From IMG/VR virus record IMGVR_UViG_2585427768_000003, positions 1 through 26,251 of that record: a stretch of DNA of 26,251 bases; one strand, written 5' to 3'. The position numbers and the translations under genes were made by a program. The stretch comes from a virus. Taxonomy: Duplodnaviria > Heunggongvirae > Uroviricota > Caudoviricetes. The stretch's first letter is position 1, and each line of letters opens with the position of its first letter. The notes below the pieces were generated by a model. The model worked only from the letters and a program-made list of their open reading frames with translations, did not search any database and was not told the origin of the DNA. Below, piece by piece: positions 5,862-26,251 of the stretch.

Positions 5862-6053
5862 ATGACCAAAGAAGAAAAAATTCTTTATTTATTCCAACTA
5901 TCGGTTAAGACTCACACTGCATATCAGACTGCTGCCATGACATCAGATAAAAATTACAGTACGTCAGAAAACCCGATAGACGACATAAGCAAGCTTTACG
6001 ATAAGTTCGAAGCACTACTCGATAAAAAGTTTGCTGAGGCTGGGCTTGAGTGA
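5862..6053 (+). CDS. small hypothetical protein (63 aa), opposite orientation to the early-left operon
   Basis: ATG at 5862 preceded by AAGGAA; AT-richer than neighbours; 3' end overlaps the convergent ORF 6015..6221. Confidence 0.45.
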   Translation: MTKEEKILYLFQLSVKTHTAYQTAAMTSDKNYSTSENPIDDISKLYDKFEALLDKKFAEAGLE

Positions 6054-9769: not shown

Positions 9770-10422
9770 TGAGTAATAAATATTGCCAGGCGCTGGTGGA
9801 GCTGCGAAACAAACCAGCCCATGAACTGAAGGAAGTGGGCGATCAGTGGCGCACGCCGGACAACATTTTCTGGGGAATTAACACCCTGTTTGGCCCGTTT
9901 GTTCTGGATCTGTTCACTGATGGTGATAACGCCAAATGTGCCGCTTATTACACTGCGGAAGACAACGCGCTGGCGCATGACTGGTCTGAACGTCTTGCGG
10001 AGCTTAAAGGTGCTGCCTTTGGTAATCCCCCGTACAGCCGCGCCAGTCAGCATGAGGGGCAATACATCACCGGCATGCGTTACATCATGAAACATGCCAG
10101 TGCTATGCGTGATAAAGGCGGGCGCTATGTTTTCCTGATCAAAGCTGCCACCAGCGAAGTTTGGTGGCCGGAAGATGCAGACCATATTGCTTTTATTCGC
10201 GGGCGTATTGGTTTTGAACTGCCAGCCTGGTTTATCCCGAAGGATGAGAAGCAGGTTCCGACAGGAGCTTTCTTCGCTGGTGCTATTGCTGTTTTCGACA
10301 AGACCTGGAAGGGACCGGCAATCAGCTACATCGGGCGCGATGAACTTGAGGCATGTGGTGAGGCCTTTCTGGCGCAGGTTCGCCAGCAGGCAGAAAAACT
10401 GGTCAGGGAGATGGTGGCATGA
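9769..10422 (+). CDS. phage DNA N6-adenine methyltransferase (Dam-like, orphan)
   Basis: 217 aa from ATG at 9769 (TAATG overlap with upstream stop); catalytic NPPY motif in AAFGNPPYS; no adjacent restriction endonuclease gene. Confidence 0.85.
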   Translation: MSNKYCQALVELRNKPAHELKEVGDQWRTPDNIFWGINTLFGPFVLDLFTDGDNAKCAAYYTAEDNALAHDWSERLAELKGAAFGNPPYSRASQHEGQYITGMRYIMKHASAMRDKGGRYVFLIKAATSEVWWPEDADHIAFIRGRIGFELPAWFIPKDEKQVPTGAFFAGAIAVFDKTWKGPAISYIGRDELEACGEAFLAQVRQQAEKLVREMVA

Positions 10423-10868
10423 CGACGTTAACTCAATGCCAGCAGCAGGTGCTGGATATGCTGATTTCTTATCAGAAAGAACGTGGCTTCCCGCCAACCA
10501 ATCAGGAGGTGGCAACCATGCTGGGATATCAGACCGGACGCCTGGCACGTTCGATTGGTTACATGGTACCCAGAGCCAGTAAACATCGCCCTGGTTTTAT
10601 GGCACGTATAGCCCCTAACCAGCGTAATGGAGAGGGAAACCGCCGTATCACCGGTGATTTTTATCCGGCTTTTTTGTTCTATGGCGTGAGGCGAGGGGCA
10701 AAGCGTCGTCGCAGCCATCATCGTGGTGCATCCGGTGGCAGCGGCTGGCGACTGGCTCCACGTAATAACTTCATGGTGGAAACGCTTGAAAAGAACCGCA
10801 GCTGGACACGCTATTTTCTGGCGCGGGAATTGCGTAAATCACTGAAGCCGGAGCGACGACGCAGATGA
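10419..10868 (+). CDS. protein with LexA-like N-terminal DNA-binding domain and highly basic C-terminal half; possible chimeric junction ORF
   Basis: N-terminus MTTLTQCQQQVLDMLISYQKERGFPPTNQEVATMLGYQ resembles the LexA N-terminal wHTH; C-terminal half Arg/Gly-rich with no recognisable fold; ATGA overlaps at both ends. Confidence 0.5.
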   Translation: MTTLTQCQQQVLDMLISYQKERGFPPTNQEVATMLGYQTGRLARSIGYMVPRASKHRPGFMARIAPNQRNGEGNRRITGDFYPAFLFYGVRRGAKRRRSHHRGASGGSGWRLAPRNNFMVETLEKNRSWTRYFLARELRKSLKPERRRR

Positions 10869-11425
10869 AACTGACGCCTGTTATTGCTGCGCTGCGTGCC
10901 CGCTGCCCGTATTTTGAAAACCGGGTGGCAGGCGCGGCACAGTTCAAAAATCTGCCGGAGGTCGGAAAGTTGAGACTCCCGGCGGCGTATGTGGTACCGG
11001 GTGATGACTCTCCGGGAGAAAACAAAAGCCAGACCGACTACTGGCAGGAGCTGAAAGAGGGCTTCTCCGTGGTTGTCATACTGAGTAACGGGCGTGATGA
11101 GCGCGGTCAGTTTGCCTCGTATGATGTGGTGGACGATGTCCGGCAGATGCTCTTTAAGGCCCTGCTGGGCTGGAACCCGGAAGCGTGCGGTAACCCGATT
11201 ACCTATGACGGCGGCACGCTGCTGGATCTGAATCGTCATGAGCTGATTTATCAGTTCGATTTTTCGGTCATCAGCGAGCTGACCGAAGACGATCCCCGCC
11301 AGCAGGATGAGCTGAACAATCTGGATGAACTGCGAACGCTGGCGATTGATGTTGATTATCTCGATCCCGGTAACGGGCCTGACGGCGATATCGAACATCA
11401 CACCGAAATAACCCTTCCTTCCTGA
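10865..11425 (+). CDS. putative virion / tail-completion protein (Mu gp37-like position)
   Basis: 186-aa acidic protein; ATGA overlap with upstream gene; immediately precedes the sheath gene cluster; the overlapping antisense ORF 10811..11401 is rejected. Confidence 0.5.
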   Translation: MKLTPVIAALRARCPYFENRVAGAAQFKNLPEVGKLRLPAAYVVPGDDSPGENKSQTDYWQELKEGFSVVVILSNGRDERGQFASYDVVDDVRQMLFKALLGWNPEACGNPITYDGGTLLDLNRHELIYQFDFSVISELTEDDPRQQDELNNLDELRTLAIDVDYLDPGNGPDGDIEHHTEITLPS

Positions 11426-13440: not shown

Positions 13441-13709
13441 TGAAAGAGCTTGAGTTAAAGAAACCGATTACCGCTCATGGCGAGACACTCTCCGTACTGG
13501 AGTTTGATGAGCCCACCGGGAAAGATGTCCGCGAGCTGGGGTATCCCTACCAGATGAATCAGGATGAGTCCGTCAGACTTCTGGCGCATGTGGTATCGAA
13601 ATATATTGTGCGGCTGGCGAAAGTGCCGCAAAGCTCTGTCGACCAGATGTCTCCGGCAGACCTGAATGCAGCGGCGTGGCTTGTGGCTGGTTTTTTCCTC
13701 CAGGCCTGA
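13440..13709 (+). CDS. tail assembly chaperone (short, in-frame product)
   Basis: 89 aa; position before the tape measure gene; contains slippery heptamer T TTT TTC at 13691..13697 near its 3' end. Confidence 0.8.
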   Translation: MKELELKKPITAHGETLSVLEFDEPTGKDVRELGYPYQMNQDESVRLLAHVVSKYIVRLAKVPQSSVDQMSPADLNAAAWLVAGFFLQA

Positions 13710-15774: not shown

Positions 15775-16305
15775 ATGAAAGGCTATATCACAGCAAGTGT
15801 AATTCTTGGAGCAGCGGCTATTTTTTCATCTCTCATAATCTCTGGCAACATCTCCTTTAAAGATGAACATATTATTCAGTTATCTGGAGGAGCCATAAAA
15901 CTTGGTGATGTTTATAAAGAAAATAAATTGATAAGTGCAAAGATTATTTTTCCAGATAATCAGGGTGAACAGATTCTTGTTGTCGACGGCAATCCTGAAA
16001 ACTTTAAGGAGGATTTTCAGGAGAAATTAAATAAAGTAATAAAAACTTTAAATGCGTCAAAGAAAAAAGATGAAGAGAAAGTTAGCCTGGATAATTTAAG
16101 TGTTATTGAAGAGTCTAAACTAGAGCTCGTTTCTGCGGTGCGTTACTCTGCTCAGTATGTTCCTATGTTTACTCTGACGCTGGACAAAAAAGAAATTACC
16201 ATGCCTAAAAATACGGTAATATTTCCATTTGCCAGCGATGAAACAGCTAAGTATTTAAATGAACAACAGCAAAAGTATAAAGATTCGTTGTTTCTGACTC
16301 GCTAA
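15775..16305 (+). CDS. moron-encoded hypothetical membrane-anchored or secreted protein
   Basis: 176 aa; N-terminal hydrophobic segment ITASVILGAAAIFSSLIISG; Lys/Glu-rich remainder; strongly AT-rich relative to flanking tail genes; own promoter-like and terminator elements. Confidence 0.7.
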   Translation: MKGYITASVILGAAAIFSSLIISGNISFKDEHIIQLSGGAIKLGDVYKENKLISAKIIFPDNQGEQILVVDGNPENFKEDFQEKLNKVIKTLNASKKKDEEKVSLDNLSVIEESKLELVSAVRYSAQYVPMFTLTLDKKEITMPKNTVIFPFASDETAKYLNEQQQKYKDSLFLTR

Positions 16306-17695: not shown

Positions 17696-18771
17696 ACGAT
17701 AACGTCACGCTACGGGTAAATGGCCGGGAGTGGAATGGCTGGACATCGGTGCGCATCGGTGCCGGTGTTGAACGACTGGCGCGGGATTTCAGTGTGGAGA
17801 TCCCCCGCCAGTGGCCGGGAGATGATGGTATCACCACGCTTCAGCCGCGCATTAAAAATGGTTCAAAAGTGGAAGTGCTGATTGGTGATGAGCTGGTGAT
17901 CACCGGCTGGGTGGAGGCGACCCCCGTTCGTTACGATGCCCGTTCGGTCAGCACCGGTATTGCCGGACGTAGTCTGACCGCTGACCTGATTGACTGTGCA
18001 GCCGAACCGACACAGTTTAACGGACGATCGCTGGTACAGATTGCGCAGGCGCTTGCTGCGCCTTTCGGCATTGAGGTGGTGAACAGCGATGCGCCGTCGG
18101 GTGTTATTCCGGATGTCCAGCCTGATCACGGTGAAACGGTGATCGAGGTGATCAACAAAATACTCGGTCAGCAGCAGGCGCTGGCTTATGACGACCCGCA
18201 CGGCAGGCTGGTGATTGGTGGTATTGGCTCAACGCGGGCACATACCGCGCTGGTACTTGGGGAAAACATCCTTTCCTGTGATACGGAGAAGAGTATCCGG
18301 GAGCGGTTTTCAGTTTACCAGGTGGCGGGGCAGCGTGCCGGAAACGACGATGATTTCGGTGAGGCCACCACCACCGCGCTGCGGGCCCGCACAGAGGATG
18401 CATTTATTGCCCGTTACCGTCCGATGTATATCAGGCAGACAGGGCAGGCTACGGGGGCAGGCTGTATTGCGCGTGCTGACTTTGAAGCCCGACAACGGGC
18501 GGCGCGGACGGATGAAACCACCTATGTGGTGCAGGGCTGGCGACAGGGTAACGGTACGCTGTGGCAGCCCAACCAGCGGGTGATTGTCTTCGATCCGGTC
18601 TGTGGTTTCGACAATACCGAACTGCTTGTCTCGGAAGTCACGTTTACTCAGGACCAGAATGGCACCCTGACGGAAATCCGTGTCGGCCCGCCTGATGCTT
18701 ATCTGCCTGAACCCGAAGATCCCGGCGCGCGGAAAAAGAAAAAAGCCAGAGTACAGGAGGACCCGTTCTGA
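17692..18771 (+). CDS. baseplate hub protein (Mu P / P2 gpD-like)
   Basis: 359 aa; ATGA overlap with upstream gene; position and sequence flavour of gpD-type hub proteins. Confidence 0.8.
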   Translation: MNDNVTLRVNGREWNGWTSVRIGAGVERLARDFSVEIPRQWPGDDGITTLQPRIKNGSKVEVLIGDELVITGWVEATPVRYDARSVSTGIAGRSLTADLIDCAAEPTQFNGRSLVQIAQALAAPFGIEVVNSDAPSGVIPDVQPDHGETVIEVINKILGQQQALAYDDPHGRLVIGGIGSTRAHTALVLGENILSCDTEKSIRERFSVYQVAGQRAGNDDDFGEATTTALRARTEDAFIARYRPMYIRQTGQATGAGCIARADFEARQRAARTDETTYVVQGWRQGNGTLWQPNQRVIVFDPVCGFDNTELLVSEVTFTQDQNGTLTEIRVGPPDAYLPEPEDPGARKKKKARVQEDPF

Positions 18772-19319
18772 TGAGGACGATTGAAGCAATGCAGCGACAA
18801 CTTCTCGGCCTGATTGGGCGGGCAGTGGTGAAAAGCATCAGTGCCGCCACGAAATGTCAGACCGTGGATGTGTCCCTGATTGCCGGTGAACCCAAAGCCG
18901 GGGTTGAACATCTTGAACCCTACGGTTTTACCGCAAGGGCAAACAGCGGTGCGGAAGCGGTGGTGTTGTTTCCGGATGGCGACCGTTCTCACGCGGTGGT
19001 TGTTACGGTGTCGGACCGTCGCTACCGCCTGAAAGGGCTGCAGACGGGTGAGGTGGCTGTCTATGACGATCAGGGGCAGTCCGTGACGCTGACCCGGGAG
19101 GGGATCGTGGTGGACGGTGCAGGTAAAACGATCACGTTTCGCAATTCACCTAAAGCACGTTTTGAAATGGACCTTGAAGTGACCGGACAGGTGAAAGACC
19201 TGTGCGACTCCGGCGGTACCACCATGTCAGCGATGCAGCTTGCCTATAACGGGCATCGTCACAGAGAGAACGGTCAGGGCAGTAACACCGACAAACCTGA
19301 TAAAGCGATGGAGGCATGA
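18771..19319 (+). CDS. baseplate assembly / spike protein (gpV-like, Mu gp45-like)
   Basis: 182 aa; TGATG overlap; follows the hub gene as in Mu and P2 baseplate clusters. Confidence 0.75.
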   Translation: MRTIEAMQRQLLGLIGRAVVKSISAATKCQTVDVSLIAGEPKAGVEHLEPYGFTARANSGAEAVVLFPDGDRSHAVVVTVSDRRYRLKGLQTGEVAVYDDQGQSVTLTREGIVVDGAGKTITFRNSPKARFEMDLEVTGQVKDLCDSGGTTMSAMQLAYNGHRHRENGQGSNTDKPDKAMEA

Positions 19320-19744
19320 TGGAACTGTGGCTGACGGTGAACGGTAAACGCACCTGCGCCAGCGCACAGCTGGATCCGCTGACCCGCGCCGTGGTGATTT
19401 CCCTGTTTACCTGGCGGCGGGCGGAGCCTGATGACAACGCCGACGTCCCGATGGGATGGTGGGGGGATACCTGGCCTGCGGTACAGAATGACCGTTACGG
19501 CTCCCGACTGTGGCTGCTTCAGCGCAGCAAACTGACCAATCAGCTGGTGCAGACGGTAAGGGGGTATATCCGCGAATGCCTGCAATGGATGATTGATGAC
19601 GGCGTGGTGTCCCGTATTGATCTGGATATCCGCCGCACCGGGATTAATGAACTGGGTAACAGTATCACTCTCTGGCGTCGTGACGGACCGGTAATGATTT
19701 CTTTTGATGATCTGTGGAGTGCGATAACGCATGGCGGACAGTGA
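19316..19744 (+). CDS. baseplate protein (Mu gp46 / gpW-like)
   Basis: 142 aa; overlaps neighbours at both ends; order conserved with Mu gp46. Confidence 0.7.
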   Translation: MMELWLTVNGKRTCASAQLDPLTRAVVISLFTWRRAEPDDNADVPMGWWGDTWPAVQNDRYGSRLWLLQRSKLTNQLVQTVRGYIRECLQWMIDDGVVSRIDLDIRRTGINELGNSITLWRRDGPVMISFDDLWSAITHGGQ

Positions 19745-20790
19745 ATTTCAGCGCCCGACGCTGGCAGAAAATATCAGTATGCTCCGTAACGATTTATTCG
19801 CCAGGCTGGACGTCAGCAACACGCTCCGGCGCATGGATGAAGACGTGCGGGCAAAGGTGTATGCGGCGGCGCTGCATACGGTTTACGGGTACATCGATTA
19901 TCTGGCAATGAACATGCTGCCTGACCTGTGCGATGAGTCCTGGCTGGCGCGACATGCTGCGATGAAACGGTGTCCGCGCAAGGGGGCCACGGCTGCCAGC
20001 GGGTATATGCGCTGGGAAGGTGTCAGCGATGGCCTGAAGGTGACCGCCGGGAGTGTTATTCAGCGCGATGACCTGGTGCAGTACACGGCAACTGCCGATG
20101 CAACCAGCTCCGGTGGTGTCCTGCGCGTGCCGATCGCCTGCTCAAGTGCAGGCGCGGTCGGTAACGCTGACGACGGTACGTCATTAATCCTGGTCACGCC
20201 GGTGAATGGTCTGCCGTCTTCCGGCGTGGCAGATACACTGACAGGTGGATTTGATACTGAAGAGCTGGAAACGTGGCGCGCCCGCGTCATTGAGCGGTAT
20301 TACTGGACGCCTCAGGGCGGGGCTGACGGGGACTATGTCGTCTGGGCTAAAGAAGTGCCCGGCATTACCCGCGCATGGACATACCGACACTGGATGGGAA
20401 CGGGGACTGTCGGTGTGATGATTGCCAGCAGTGACCTGATTAATCCCATTCCGGAAGAATCAACGGAAATGGCGGCAAGACAACATATCGGGCCACTGGC
20501 CCCGGTGGCAGGCTCTGATTTGTATGTGTTCAGGCCGGTGGCGCATACGGTGGATTTTCATATCCGTGTGACGATCGGATACACCAGAAATACGGGCTGC
20601 CATCACCGCCGAGTTGCGTTCGTTCCTGCTGCGTGATGGTTATCCGCAGGGAGAACTGAAGGTGTCGCGTATCAGTGAAGCGATTTCCGGTGCGAACGGG
20701 GAATACAGCCATCAGTTGCTTGCACCGGCAGACAATATCTCCATTGCAAAAAATGAACTGGCGGTACTGGGGACGATTTCATGGACGTGA
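19731..20790 (+). pseudogene. baseplate J-like protein (Mu gp47-like), interrupted by a +1 frame change near 20572..20585
   Basis: frame 0 ORF 19731..20636 ends in a basic tail unlike the rest (…RNTGCHHRRVAFVPAA); the +1 frame opens at 20572 and reads a protein-like C-terminus (TPEIRAAITAELRSFLLRDGYPQGELKVSRISEAISGANGEY...) ending in a stop that overlaps the next gene start (ATGGACGTGA). Confidence 0.6.
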
Positions 20791-21365
20791 CAAACGATGA
20801 TTACATCCGTCTGTTGTCGGCACTGTTGCCCCCCGGTCCGGCGTGGTCAGCCAGCGATCCGGCGATTGCCGGTGCGGCACCGTCATTAACCCGCGTTCAT
20901 CAGCGTGCGGATGCCCTGATGCGGGAGCTGGATCCGCGCACCACCACTGAACTGATAAACCGCTGGGAGCGTCTGTGCGGCCTGCCGGATGAATGTATTC
21001 CTACAGGGACACAGACCCTTCGCCAGCGTCAGCAACGGCTGGATGCGAAGATTAATCTGGCGGGCGGCATTAATGAGGATTTTTACCTTGCACAGCTTGC
21101 TGCCCTGGGCAGACCAGACGCCACCATCACGCGATACGATAAAAGCACGTTCACCTGCTCATCTGCCTGTACTGACGCGGTGAATGCGCCGGAATGGCGG
21201 TATTACTGGCAGGTCAACATGCCAGCCGCCACCAACACCACCTGGATGACATGTGGCGATCCCTGTGATTCCGCACTGCGTATCTGGGGCGACACCGTTG
21301 TCGAGTGTGTGCTTAACAAACTCTGCCCTTCGCATACCTACGTAATTTTTAAATATCCGGAGTAA
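20781..21365 (+). CDS. tail protein (Mu gp48 / YmfQ-like, DUF2313-type)
   Basis: 194 aa; located between baseplate J-like and tail fiber genes; family from recall. Confidence 0.7.
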
Positions 21366-21368
21366 TCC

Positions 21369-22469
21369 ATGCATCGTATAGACACGAAAACCGCGCAGAA
21401 GGATAAGTTCGGCGCGGGTAAGAACGGTTTTACCCGTGGTAACCCCCAGACCGGCACGCCTGCCACCGATCTGGATGATGACTACTTTGACATGTTGCAG
21501 GAAGAACTCTGCAGCGTGGTGGAGGCATCCGGTGCCAGCCTGGAGAAGGGGCGGCACGATCAGCTTCTTACCGCGCTTCGTGCGCTGCTGTTAAGCCGCA
21601 AGAATCCGTTTGGCGATATCAAATCGGATGGCACTGTGCAAACGGCTCTCGAAAACCTGGGAATGACAGACATTCTGAATGATAAACAGGATAAAAATGA
21701 TAATCTGACATCATTGTCGAGCTTAACAGGAATACCGGATGGGCTGGCATTTTTTACAGGTGCTGGAACAATGGATATGACAGCGCTGACTCAAAATGGT
21801 AGGGAAATTTTAAGTAAAAAAAACGTATCGGAAACTCTACAATATTTAACACTTGGTGATGGAACAGGAAGGCTTTTGGGGGTTCAGGTATTTGGATCAT
21901 CTGGGACTTATCACAAATCACCTGGTGTAACGAAAATTATAGTGGAAGCCGTTGGCGGTGGTGGTGCCAGTGGCAATTTATCAGCAACAGCCTCAAATAA
22001 CTGTGGTGTAAGTGCTGCCGGTTCCAACGGGGCATATGCTAAAGCATTTTTTTATCAGTCTATACCTGAATCCGTGCAAGTAACTATTGGAAGCGGTGGT
22101 GTAGCAGGAACAGGACCAGGAGGCTCTGGAGGTGACGGCGGGAATACAAGCTTTGGTGATTTGCTTGTATGCCCGGGAGGAAGGGGATCAACTCAAGTTC
22201 AGCAGGTACCTCCATTTTCAGGGGGAAGTGCAACAGAAGCACCAATTCCTACAGGGCAAGGGATTCTGTTCCATTCAGTTTCACGATCAAATTTATGTGG
22301 GGCACTTGGACTTGGTGATGATCAGGCGATTGGCGTTGAAAGTATAACCACTACTATGCTTGGGACATACGGTATTGGCGGGGCAGGGAAATACAATAAG
22401 GCGTCATCAGGCCCAGCGACAGGAAATAATGGAAATCAGGGATATATTCTTGTGTGGGAGTATCAGTAA
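21369..22469 (+). CDS. tail fiber protein with conserved N-terminal anchor and AT-rich glycine-rich C-terminal receptor-binding region
   Basis: 366 aa; N-terminus [17 protein letters not shown]...[19 protein letters not shown] typical of tail fiber anchors; composition shifts to AT-rich near 21660; C-terminal Gly-rich motifs ([25 protein letters not shown]). Confidence 0.8.
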
Positions 22470-22648: not shown

Positions 22649-22664
22649 CGCGGTTTTATTTATT
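22634..22664. terminator. bidirectional Rho-independent terminator between convergent genes
   Basis: stem AACCGCGC/GCGCGGTT with AATA loop, A-tract 5' and T-tract 3'; both convergent stop codons (22646..22648 and 22660..22662) lie inside the element. Confidence 0.7.
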
Positions 22665-23679
22665 TTACTGCTAAAATTCGTTTTCTTAGCATCAGCTCTA
22701 AAGGCTCCTCAACTAATTTATAAAGTATGATTGAGACTATGGTTATTATAACAAGGAGCGCTATTAAATAGAGTGGTCCGGGGTTATGTCCAAAGATTTT
22801 AAAGCAAAATAATATAATGGGTTGATGAATTAAATAAAAAATAAATGATGATTTCCCTAATAGCTCTAGGGTTTTTGAACTGAGGATAGTATGAATGACT
22901 CCATTTCTTAGATAGATGCATGAAGTAAAGAATATTACCATGGGGAGTAAATAATATAACGAATAACGTAGACTATTATTTATGTTGTTGCTATAATATA
23001 TAGCTATTAGCAGAGGTAATAGTGAAATTAAAAACAAAAGGCTGTCGACTGTCTGCTGTCGGCTGTTTTTCCAGCAAGCGTAAATAATCATGCCGCAAAT
23101 AAATTCTACCAAGCGGCTTACTGGGAATATATAATATAACCAGTGATTAAGTTCTTCTGTTTGTATAATTTTTAAAAAATATATAGTTAATAGTAGAGTT
23201 ATAATTGATATTGCAGTGATTACTTTCTTTGTAATTGATGTATAAATCAACGGAATAAACATTAAATAAAAAAACAGCTCATCAGACAAAGACCATGATA
23301 CACCATTTAATGAGAAGTAGTAATCCTCCTTTGGTATCCAACTTTGCATTAATAAAATATTTGTTAAGGTTTTTGAAAAATCAAAGTTCTTTAAGTGAAT
23401 GGTTAGTAAAATAAATGGCATGGCTAATAATAGATGCATTGGAACAATTCTTGCCAATCTTAAAAGAATAAACTGTCTTTTACTTGTTACTTCATTTTTT
23501 AGCTTGTCTTCATATGAATATGAAAGAATGAAGCCAGATAAAATAAAGAAAAAGGAAACGCCAATAAATCCCTGGGAAAACATTTCTTTTACAAAAACAC
23601 CAAAATAGTCTGTATTTAAATGGCATAAATAAACCATTAATGCAGCTATAAATCTGAGTCCTGTTAAGTGGCGAAGCAT
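22660..23679 (-). CDS. membrane acyltransferase family 3 (O-antigen acetyltransferase Oac/OafA-like), likely serotype-conversion gene
   Basis: 339 aa from ATG at 23679 (AAGAGG Shine-Dalgarno; track start 23709 also possible); multiple predicted TM helices; N-terminal RHLTGLRFIAALMVYLCH motif typical of acyltransferase-3; very AT-rich. Confidence 0.8.
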   Translation of the reverse strand: MLRHLTGLRFIAALMVYLCHLNTDYFGVFVKEMFSQGFIGVSFFFILSGFILSYSYEDKLKNEVTSKRQFILLRLARIVPMHLLLAMPFILLTIHLKNFDFSKTLTNILLMQSWIPKEDYYFSLNGVSWSLSDELFFYLMFIPLIYTSITKKVITAISIITLLLTIYFLKIIQTEELNHWLYYIFPVSRLVEFICGMIIYACWKNSRQQTVDSLLFLISLLPLLIAIYYSNNINNSLRYSLYYLLPMVIFFTSCIYLRNGVIHTILSSKTLELLGKSSFIFYLIHQPIILFCFKIFGHNPGPLYLIALLVIITIVSIILYKLVEEPLELMLRKRILAVK

Positions 23680-25668: not shown

Positions 25669-25716
25669 ATTCGTAATGCGAAGGTCGTAGGTTCGACTCC
25701 TATTATCGGCACCATT
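25669..25716. repeat. attR: partial copy of thrW 3' end (anticodon loop to acceptor 3' end)
   Basis: 48 bp identical to 1399..1446; lacks the tRNA 5' half, so not a functional tRNA. Confidence 0.85.
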
Positions 25717-25840
25717 AAAATCAAAGAGTTACCCCATATTTAAATACACCACGTTTCCTCCTGTGCCGTATTTGTGCCATTGTAACCTTGGCAATTCATC
25801 AAAATACTGTTCTGACATCAGGCAGTGCAGGTGCAGACAT

Positions 25841-26251
25841 TTAAGCCAATTGCTGCCGCCATTCTTTGACGTAGTCAATCAGGGCGCGGAGCTTTGGTGC
25901 AATATTGCGACGCTGTGGGAAATACAGATAGAAGCCCGGAAATTGTGGAAGAAAGTCATCAAGCAGCGATACAAGCTTACCGCTTTCAATATATGGCCTG
26001 AAAGTTTCCTGAGTGGCAATTGTTATTCCTCCGCCGGCAAGAGCCAGCCTCAACATCAGACGCAGATCATTAGTCGTAATCTGCGGTTCAATCGCAAGGT
26101 CGAAAGTTCTCCCGTTTTCTTCAAATGGCCAGCGATAAGGCGCACCCTCCGGGGACTGACGCCAGCCGATACACTTATGGGTATTTCCCCCGGAGGCGAG
26201 AAAGCGCTCTCCACGCCCGGCCGCAAGGATCAGGACGACGGGGGCAGGCAT
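25841..26251 (-). CDS. LysR-family transcriptional regulator, C-terminal part only (gene continues beyond window end)
   Basis: C-terminus ...KLVSLLDDFLPQFPGFYLYFPQRRNIAPKLRALIDYV typical of LysR substrate-binding domains; the Met at 26251 is a window-edge artefact. Confidence 0.6.
   Translation of the reverse strand: MPAPVVLILAAGRGERFLASGGNTHKCIGWRQSPEGAPYRWPFEENGRTFDLAIEPQITTNDLRLMLRLALAGGGITIATQETFRPYIESGKLVSLLDDFLPQFPGFYLYFPQRRNIAPKLRALIDYVKEWRQQLA

Follow-up and report, generated by a model that had tools for sequence, protein, structure and literature searches.

The DNA analysed here is a stretch of 26,251 nucleotides, referred to throughout as the window. It matches contig JORV01000094.1 of Escherichia coli 7-233-03_S3_C3 (GCA_000713355.1) at 100% identity, with contig coordinates equal to window coordinates plus 22744, and the deposited record is a 2014 draft assembly. 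The isolate belongs to a set of colonies from Tanzanian children, handled as single-colony isolates, sequenced on the HiSeq 2000 with 100-bp reads and assembled with MaSuRCA 2.3.2 (PMC6222053). Only two colonies from this child are of type ST10 O128:H10, namely S3_C1 (5.26 Mb) and S3_C3 (4.96 Mb, SRS568336); the other colonies are different strains (PMC6222053 Table S1). The window runs from proA through the tRNA-Thr gene thrW (1369–1444) into an SfV/SfII/SfIV-type prophage, whose contractile tail is Mu-like; attR and chromosomal xdh-like genes follow. A direct repeat of 64 bp with three mismatches forms attL (1399–1462), which overlaps the 3' end of tRNA-Thr(CGT), and attR (25669–25732); the two bound a defective prophage of about 24.3 kb.

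Measured against the complete prophage of its relative CH4790, the prophage in the window lacks 12.8 kb, and that of the sister colony S3_C1 (GCA_000713235.1) is undeleted. The missing segment holds RusA, KilA-N, DUF968, the Q antiterminator, holin, endolysin, spanin and HNH genes, together with both terminase subunits, the portal, the protease, the major capsid protein and the head-tail connectors. The ends of the deletion meet at a GGATA/GGTTA microhomology, where a LexA-like gene runs on in frame into a head-tail gene as a fusion ORF of 149 aa (10419–10868, plus strand; junction at approximately 10524–10528). We regard the deletion as real because it is present both in the GenBank assembly and in an assembly of the Logan collection, and it separates two ST10 O128:H10 colonies of one stool sample. 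Because packaging, head and lysis genes are lost, the prophage would be unable to make particles, whatever the state of any single tail gene, including the one discussed below.

Three other genes of the prophage deserve mention. The attR-proximal end of the prophage encodes an acyltransferase of 339 aa (22660–23679, minus strand; Acyl_transf_3, E=1.4e-30). In serotype-converting phages, genes that modify the O-antigen are located there; the in-silico serotype of the isolate is given as an ambiguous "O128ab/ac" (PMC6222053). Between the tape-measure and DNA-circularisation genes lies an ORF of 176 aa (15775–16305, plus strand), which has no Pfam match and hits PHROG 5485 (E=4e-108), a family of unknown function. 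The prophage of CH4790 lacks this ORF, but at least ten other loci have it at the equivalent place, and it may be a moron-like cargo gene. The product of the tail fibre gene (21369–22469, plus strand) has 366 aa, and its C-terminal domain is rich in glycine (Gly_rich_2, E=9e-8); an ORF of 59 aa comes next. Many relatives carry an invertible fibre/tfa/pin cassette at this position, which implies that the present prophage lineage has a different host-range module.

The baseplate genes follow the order of Mu-type wedge modules: a gpP-like gene, Phage_Mu_Gp45, GP46, Baseplate_J and Phage_Mu_Gp48. The gp46-like wedge gene (19316–19744, plus strand; PHROG 180, E=1.5e-55) overlaps the start of the Baseplate J gene, and a YmfQ/Mu gp48-like wedge gene (20781–21365, plus strand; PHROG 203, E=1.4e-84) overlaps its end. 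In the deposited sequence the J gene is broken. Translation of the window in frame 0 gives an ORF from an ATG at 19731 to a stop codon at 20634–20636 (19731–20636, plus strand; GenBank KEN09257.1, 301 aa), composed of 281 native residues and an out-of-frame tail of 20 residues, IGYTRNTGCHHRRVAFVPAA. The +1 frame, closed by a TGA at 20569–20571, reads through from 20572 until it meets the TGA at 20788–20790; its product begins with RSDTPEIRAAITAELRSFLL and ends in GTISWT. In GenBank this frame is represented by a fragment of 58 aa with a TTG start (20614–20790, plus strand; KEN09258.1). The true end of J and the next gene, whose ATG is at 20781, share 10 nt.

Alignment to related loci resolves the lesion to the base. 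The window reads GACGATCGGA where homologs read GACG-CCGGA, that is, AT stands for C at 20574–20575 (positions 43318–43319 of the contig), with a net gain of one base. A single C occupies the site in 22 of 22 aligned related loci (E. coli KSC1031, M8 and CH4790, and 19 further loci), and the site lies outside any homopolymer. The replacement destroys codon 282 from its first base (CCG, Pro, to ATCG); residues 1–281 keep frame 0, and the 70 native residues 283–352, with the stop codon, are shifted into the +1 frame (20578–20790, plus strand). With the extra base removed, the gene that should be read here (19731–20790, plus strand) encodes a Baseplate J/Mu gp47-like wedge protein of 352 aa. Reverting the whole replacement yields the KSC1031 allele base for base, from which the deposited gene differs in two alignment columns (99.8% identity). 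The preliminary description, made from the sequence alone, placed the end of frame 0 at 20636, the opening of the +1 frame at 20572 and the stop of J over the start of the next gene, and ORF translation returned the same coordinates. Its proposal of one gene, 19731–20790, with a 1-nt indel near GTGACGATCGGATACACC was likewise correct, the event being more precisely a replacement of C by AT in codon 282, inside that motif; the alignment to intact J homologs that it recommended is what placed the lesion at exactly 20574–20575.

Membership of the J family is clear on both sides of the break. The deposited 301-aa ORF matches Pfam Baseplate_J (PF04865) over profile positions 2–221 of 255 (E=2.7e-48, 164.9 bits), and the repaired 352-aa protein over positions 2–255 of 255 (E=1.8e-52, 178.6 bits), against a curated cut-off of 21.1 bits. 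Precomputed Pfam hits place Baseplate_J_C on the downstream 58-aa ORF. Because the Baseplate_J and Baseplate_J_C matches are split between them, the frame-0 and +1 stretches are consecutive parts of one J gene. The repaired protein also matches the baseplate wedge subunit family PHROG 6 (E=1.4e-86) and aligns with Mu gp47 (PDB 9ki1_H) from residue 7 to 351 against 4 to 359 (E=3e-38) without a break across the lesion; the stretch of residues 283–352, represented by the 58-aa ORF, corresponds to the C-terminus of Mu gp47. The likeness to the class of Mu gp47, PF04865, P2 gpJ and T4 gp6 therefore comprises end-to-end alignment, a full profile match and a Mu-type gene order, whereas in the window the ORF covers the profile no further than position 221 of 255, and the last 70 residues are in another frame. 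Judged by sequence, J is a routine Baseplate_J/gp47 member in an SfV/SfII/SfIV-like prophage and brings no new biology. The J genes of SfIV, SfII, SfV and SfI and of E. coli thrW prophages share 96.9–98.5% nucleotide identity with it across the whole gene, and these prophages have the same neighbouring genes and the same proA–thrW integration site; unlike the gene of the window, their J genes are all 1059 nt long and uninterrupted.

The break is confined to the one deposited sequence in every collection searched. A full-length J match was found in 1077 complete E. coli genomes, and among the matches listed (the best 30) all but one are 1059 nt long; in 12 phage records, including SfIV, SfII, SfV and SfI, J is a single ORF of 1059 nt. 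No listed locus among these 1077 genomes or 12 phages carries the AT allele, and a 22-mer spanning AT had zero exact matches in genome and metagenome contig collections. The intact KSC1031-type protein of 352 aa (P0031) is encoded on 195 contigs, and the 301-aa and 58-aa products are each found on one contig among approximately 15 billion proteins, with NCBI as the sole source; no Logan assembly in that collection gives either product.

The two-frame layout could in principle be natural, either through programmed ribosomal frameshifting or because J is genuinely split into a large subunit and a small C-terminal protein. Half-length J families do exist in PHROGs (phrog_2103 covers residues 5–166 and phrog_1608 residues 171–351), and C-terminal J fragments of 73 aa are present on 401 contigs, but the breaks in such fragments are at the 5' end or near residue 170, and residue 281 is not among them. 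The inspected close homologs are single ORFs of 1059 nt, except for one genome with a different frameshift, and none of the 22 aligned loci has the two-frame layout, which was seen in no other sequence. The Baseplate_J profile and the Mu gp47 alignment cross the site unbroken. Reading by eye, we found no X_XXY_YYZ heptamer and no prfB-like CUU_UGA context at 20560–20640, and no in-frame stop or hungry-codon context at 20565–20580. Programmed frameshifting and a naturally split J were rejected on the single-frame homologs and the absent shift motif, and we grant them practically no chance of being correct. The same evidence disposes of the scenario that the preliminary description had named as its own refutation, in which residue 285 or so would be the normal end of J proteins and a separate small gene would follow: the listed homologs are single ORFs, save for the one genome with a different frameshift, and Mu gp47 runs through the site.

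Damaged J genes of other kinds were encountered in the survey. The C-terminal J-like fragments of 73 aa (P0018 and others, on approximately 400 contigs) come from other E. coli, are labelled "hypothetical" or "phage tail protein", and are probably 5'-truncated J remnants from decayed prophages of other lineages. In E. coli APEC E123 (NZ_CP126955.1, 15220–16277; locus L031), whose allele is 99.2% identical, J is also broken by a length change of one base; there, a homopolymer of five G is reduced to four at nt 252, and PGAP annotates the gene as "frameshifted". That is a classic site of slippage or of long-read error, whereas the lesion of the window lies outside any homopolymer. The jayE gene of the cryptic K-12 prophage e14 belongs to the same family, has ymfQ downstream as in the window, and is a bona fide decayed J in a defective prophage; it is a remnant of 792 nt, deletion-fused to a portal remnant and fixed in the K-12 lineage, whereas the break in the window is a single small replacement in one assembly. 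In GCA_943733335.1 (locus L030), the gp45-like gene is cut by an IS-type transposase (rve/DDE) and J is absent, a case of genuine decay of the tail module.

The deletion provides a marker by which a second assembly, almost certainly of the same isolate, can be recognized. Among approximately 15 billion proteins, the fusion protein encoded at 10419–10868 occurs in exactly two places, GCA_000713355.1 and the Logan contig SRR1186738_117. Since the marker is confined to one GenBank assembly and one Logan run, SRR1186738 almost certainly represents the reads of S3_C3 itself; the Logan contig cannot stem from S3_C1, because S3_C1, the only clone-mate in the study, lacks the deletion. The run identifier was not found in PMC6222053 or its supplements, where Table S1 gives SRS568336 for S3_C3. 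On the Logan contig, J is a single intact ORF of 352 aa. The alignment of this contig to the window extends over 17,357 bases and shows differences only at 11294, 17803 and 20574–20575. The sister colony S3_C1, with its undeleted prophage, also has an intact J. The single ORF of about 350 aa expected of the family, which is replaced in the window by ORFs of 301 and 58 aa, is accordingly present in both, and the lesion is reproduced neither in the independent assembly nor in the clone-mate.

The three assemblies of this clone were also compared with each other and with related loci for further discrepancies, counting substitutions that differ among the three assemblies or that are common to both GenBank assemblies against the relatives. 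There are six. At 11294 the window alone has C for A (minus strand CTGGCGGG[T>G]), which changes Thr144 of the tail terminator to Pro; 13 of 13 other loci, including Logan and S3_C1, have A. At 13691 (position 6000 of locus L008), the odd allele is that of the S3_C1 GenBank assembly only, and the window, Logan and all 11 other loci have T. At 17803 both GenBank MaSuRCA assemblies have C for A (minus strand CTGGCGGG[T>G]), giving T38P in the gpP-like baseplate protein; the Logan contig has A, and 14 other loci differ from the GenBank C. Two sites fall in the tail fibre gene: A to G at 22383, found in the window only (14 of 14 others differ), and T to G at 22388, found in the window and the sister GenBank assembly only (13 others differ), at a position outside the reach of the Logan contig. 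The sixth, A to C at 26145 (minus strand CCGGAGG[T>G]), lies in a chromosomal LysR-like gene and is again private to the window, with A in nine of nine other loci.

All six are changes to G after GG on one strand, a class that makes up 3.2% of the possible substitutions in the window (p approximately 1e-9). GGC stands just upstream in five of them, and the context TGGCGGG[T/A>G] is common to three. The four changes in prophage genes that are private to the window or shared by the GenBank assemblies are all non-synonymous, two of them being Thr to Pro; codon 339 of the tail fibre encodes Thr in relatives and Ala in the window, whose 366-aa product is a singleton. Throughout, the protein variants produced by odd alleles are either singletons or limited to both GenBank assemblies. 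Sequence-specific errors of the Illumina platform start downstream of GGC, with miscalls that copy the preceding base, and they lead to spurious SNPs and make assembly harder (Nakamura et al. 2011, PMC3141275). The six substitutions follow this description, since all copy a preceding G and five lie just downstream of GGC, and they look like consensus errors of that type; the deposited contig would on this count carry roughly one consensus error per 4–6 kb. If the C at 17803 were real, a reversion in the deletion-bearing genome would be needed; parsimony hence favors a recurrent artefact of the GenBank pipeline, with Logan giving the true sequence of S3_C3, and the pattern at this site also speaks for SRR1186738 being the run of that isolate.

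The lesion in J itself does not have this form. C to AT is a replacement with a length change and not a lagging-base substitution. The base before it is not copied, and the site partly coincides with GGC or GCC instead of following it. No second error of the indel type was found in the 26 kb, over which the pipeline is seen to make substitution errors and not indel errors. Two possible sources of the AT were considered and set aside. The product of the J site includes GATCGGA, identical to bases 2–8 of the TruSeq adapter; no insert end reproduces GTGACGATCGGATACACC by adapter read-through, and the match was left as a coincidence. Templating by a quasi-palindrome or a local repeat was rejected on inspection, as the new 6-bp palindrome CGATCG does not extend and the nearby arms offer no template. 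The sites at 11294, 17803 and 20574, which are all the differences between the window and Logan, touch or create GATC, probably also by coincidence.

We consider it very probable that the frame break in J is a consensus or assembly artefact of the draft genome and not biology. This is favored because an independent, read-derived assembly that bears the isolate's unique deletion has J intact. The bacterium's J gene would be whole, with GACGCCGGA at the site in place of the deposited GACGATCGGA, and the C would have been replaced by AT in the MaSuRCA consensus, an event that may have arisen during error correction or consensus calling. The preliminary description had left the choice between a sequencing error and a real inactivating mutation that immobilises the tail module. 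An error is the arm favored by the intact J of the Logan contig; the immobilised tail is moot, because the head, packaging, lysis and Q genes had already been lost.

The main rival to this reading is a real mutation. The C to AT change would then have occurred privately in the S3_C3 lineage after the 12.8-kb deletion, truncating J at residue 281 and leaving no functional wedge. The deposited sequence does carry the lesion, which is of a type unlike the changes to G after GG; in a prophage without Q, lysis, terminase, portal, protease and capsid genes, the tail genes would be under no purifying selection, and real decay of J is known from jayE beside ymfQ. Yet the Logan contig with the identical deletion has an intact J, as has the sister colony, and in all the searches the AT allele stood alone. 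The same 26 kb hold at least four other changes that are private, non-synonymous and marked by an error signature, a number much too high for clone-mates of a single stool sample, and spontaneous mutations that combine a substitution with an insertion in one step are uncommon. We therefore hold a real mutation to be unlikely. Were the frameshift real, two colonies of the same day's stool would capture the step-wise decay of a prophage in vivo, with C1 complete and C3 having undergone first the 12.8-kb deletion and then the replacement in J, a sequence of events that we regard as similarly doubtful, if anything slightly more so. The truncated protein would lack the part that aligns with the last 70 residues of Mu gp47, from which failure of the wedge would be expected, and in an already dead prophage the mutation would have no selective effect. 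Another conceivable reading is a mixed culture with both alleles. Provided that the two assemblies stem from the same reads, their disagreement would be explained if MaSuRCA fixed a minor or equally frequent AT and Logan, which assembles from k-mers, retained C as the majority allele. The isolates are single colonies, however (PMC6222053); the other assembly-private sites are better explained by the error signature than by mixture, and we judge this reading very improbable.

With the frame break attributed to the assembly, the consequences concern mainly the deposited proteins. KEN09257.1 and KEN09258.1, the two parts of the split J, are probably artefacts, and so, probably, are KEN09246.1 (T144P), KEN09254.1 and KEM78790.1 (T38P) and the 366-aa tail fibre. 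Calling a pseudogene or an "immobilised tail" at this locus would be unfit for analyses of prophage decay without a check of the reads. Drafts of the HiSeq-2000/MaSuRCA era can hold approximately one consensus error per 4–6 kb at GGC/GGG contexts, and such errors can hit the same position in independent isolates, which then seem to share a SNP. The main value of the present analysis is in data quality, in that artefactual GenBank proteins are flagged and a within-host prophage deletion is recorded: the sole real biological difference in the window is the loss of 12.8 kb between clone-mates of a single stool sample.
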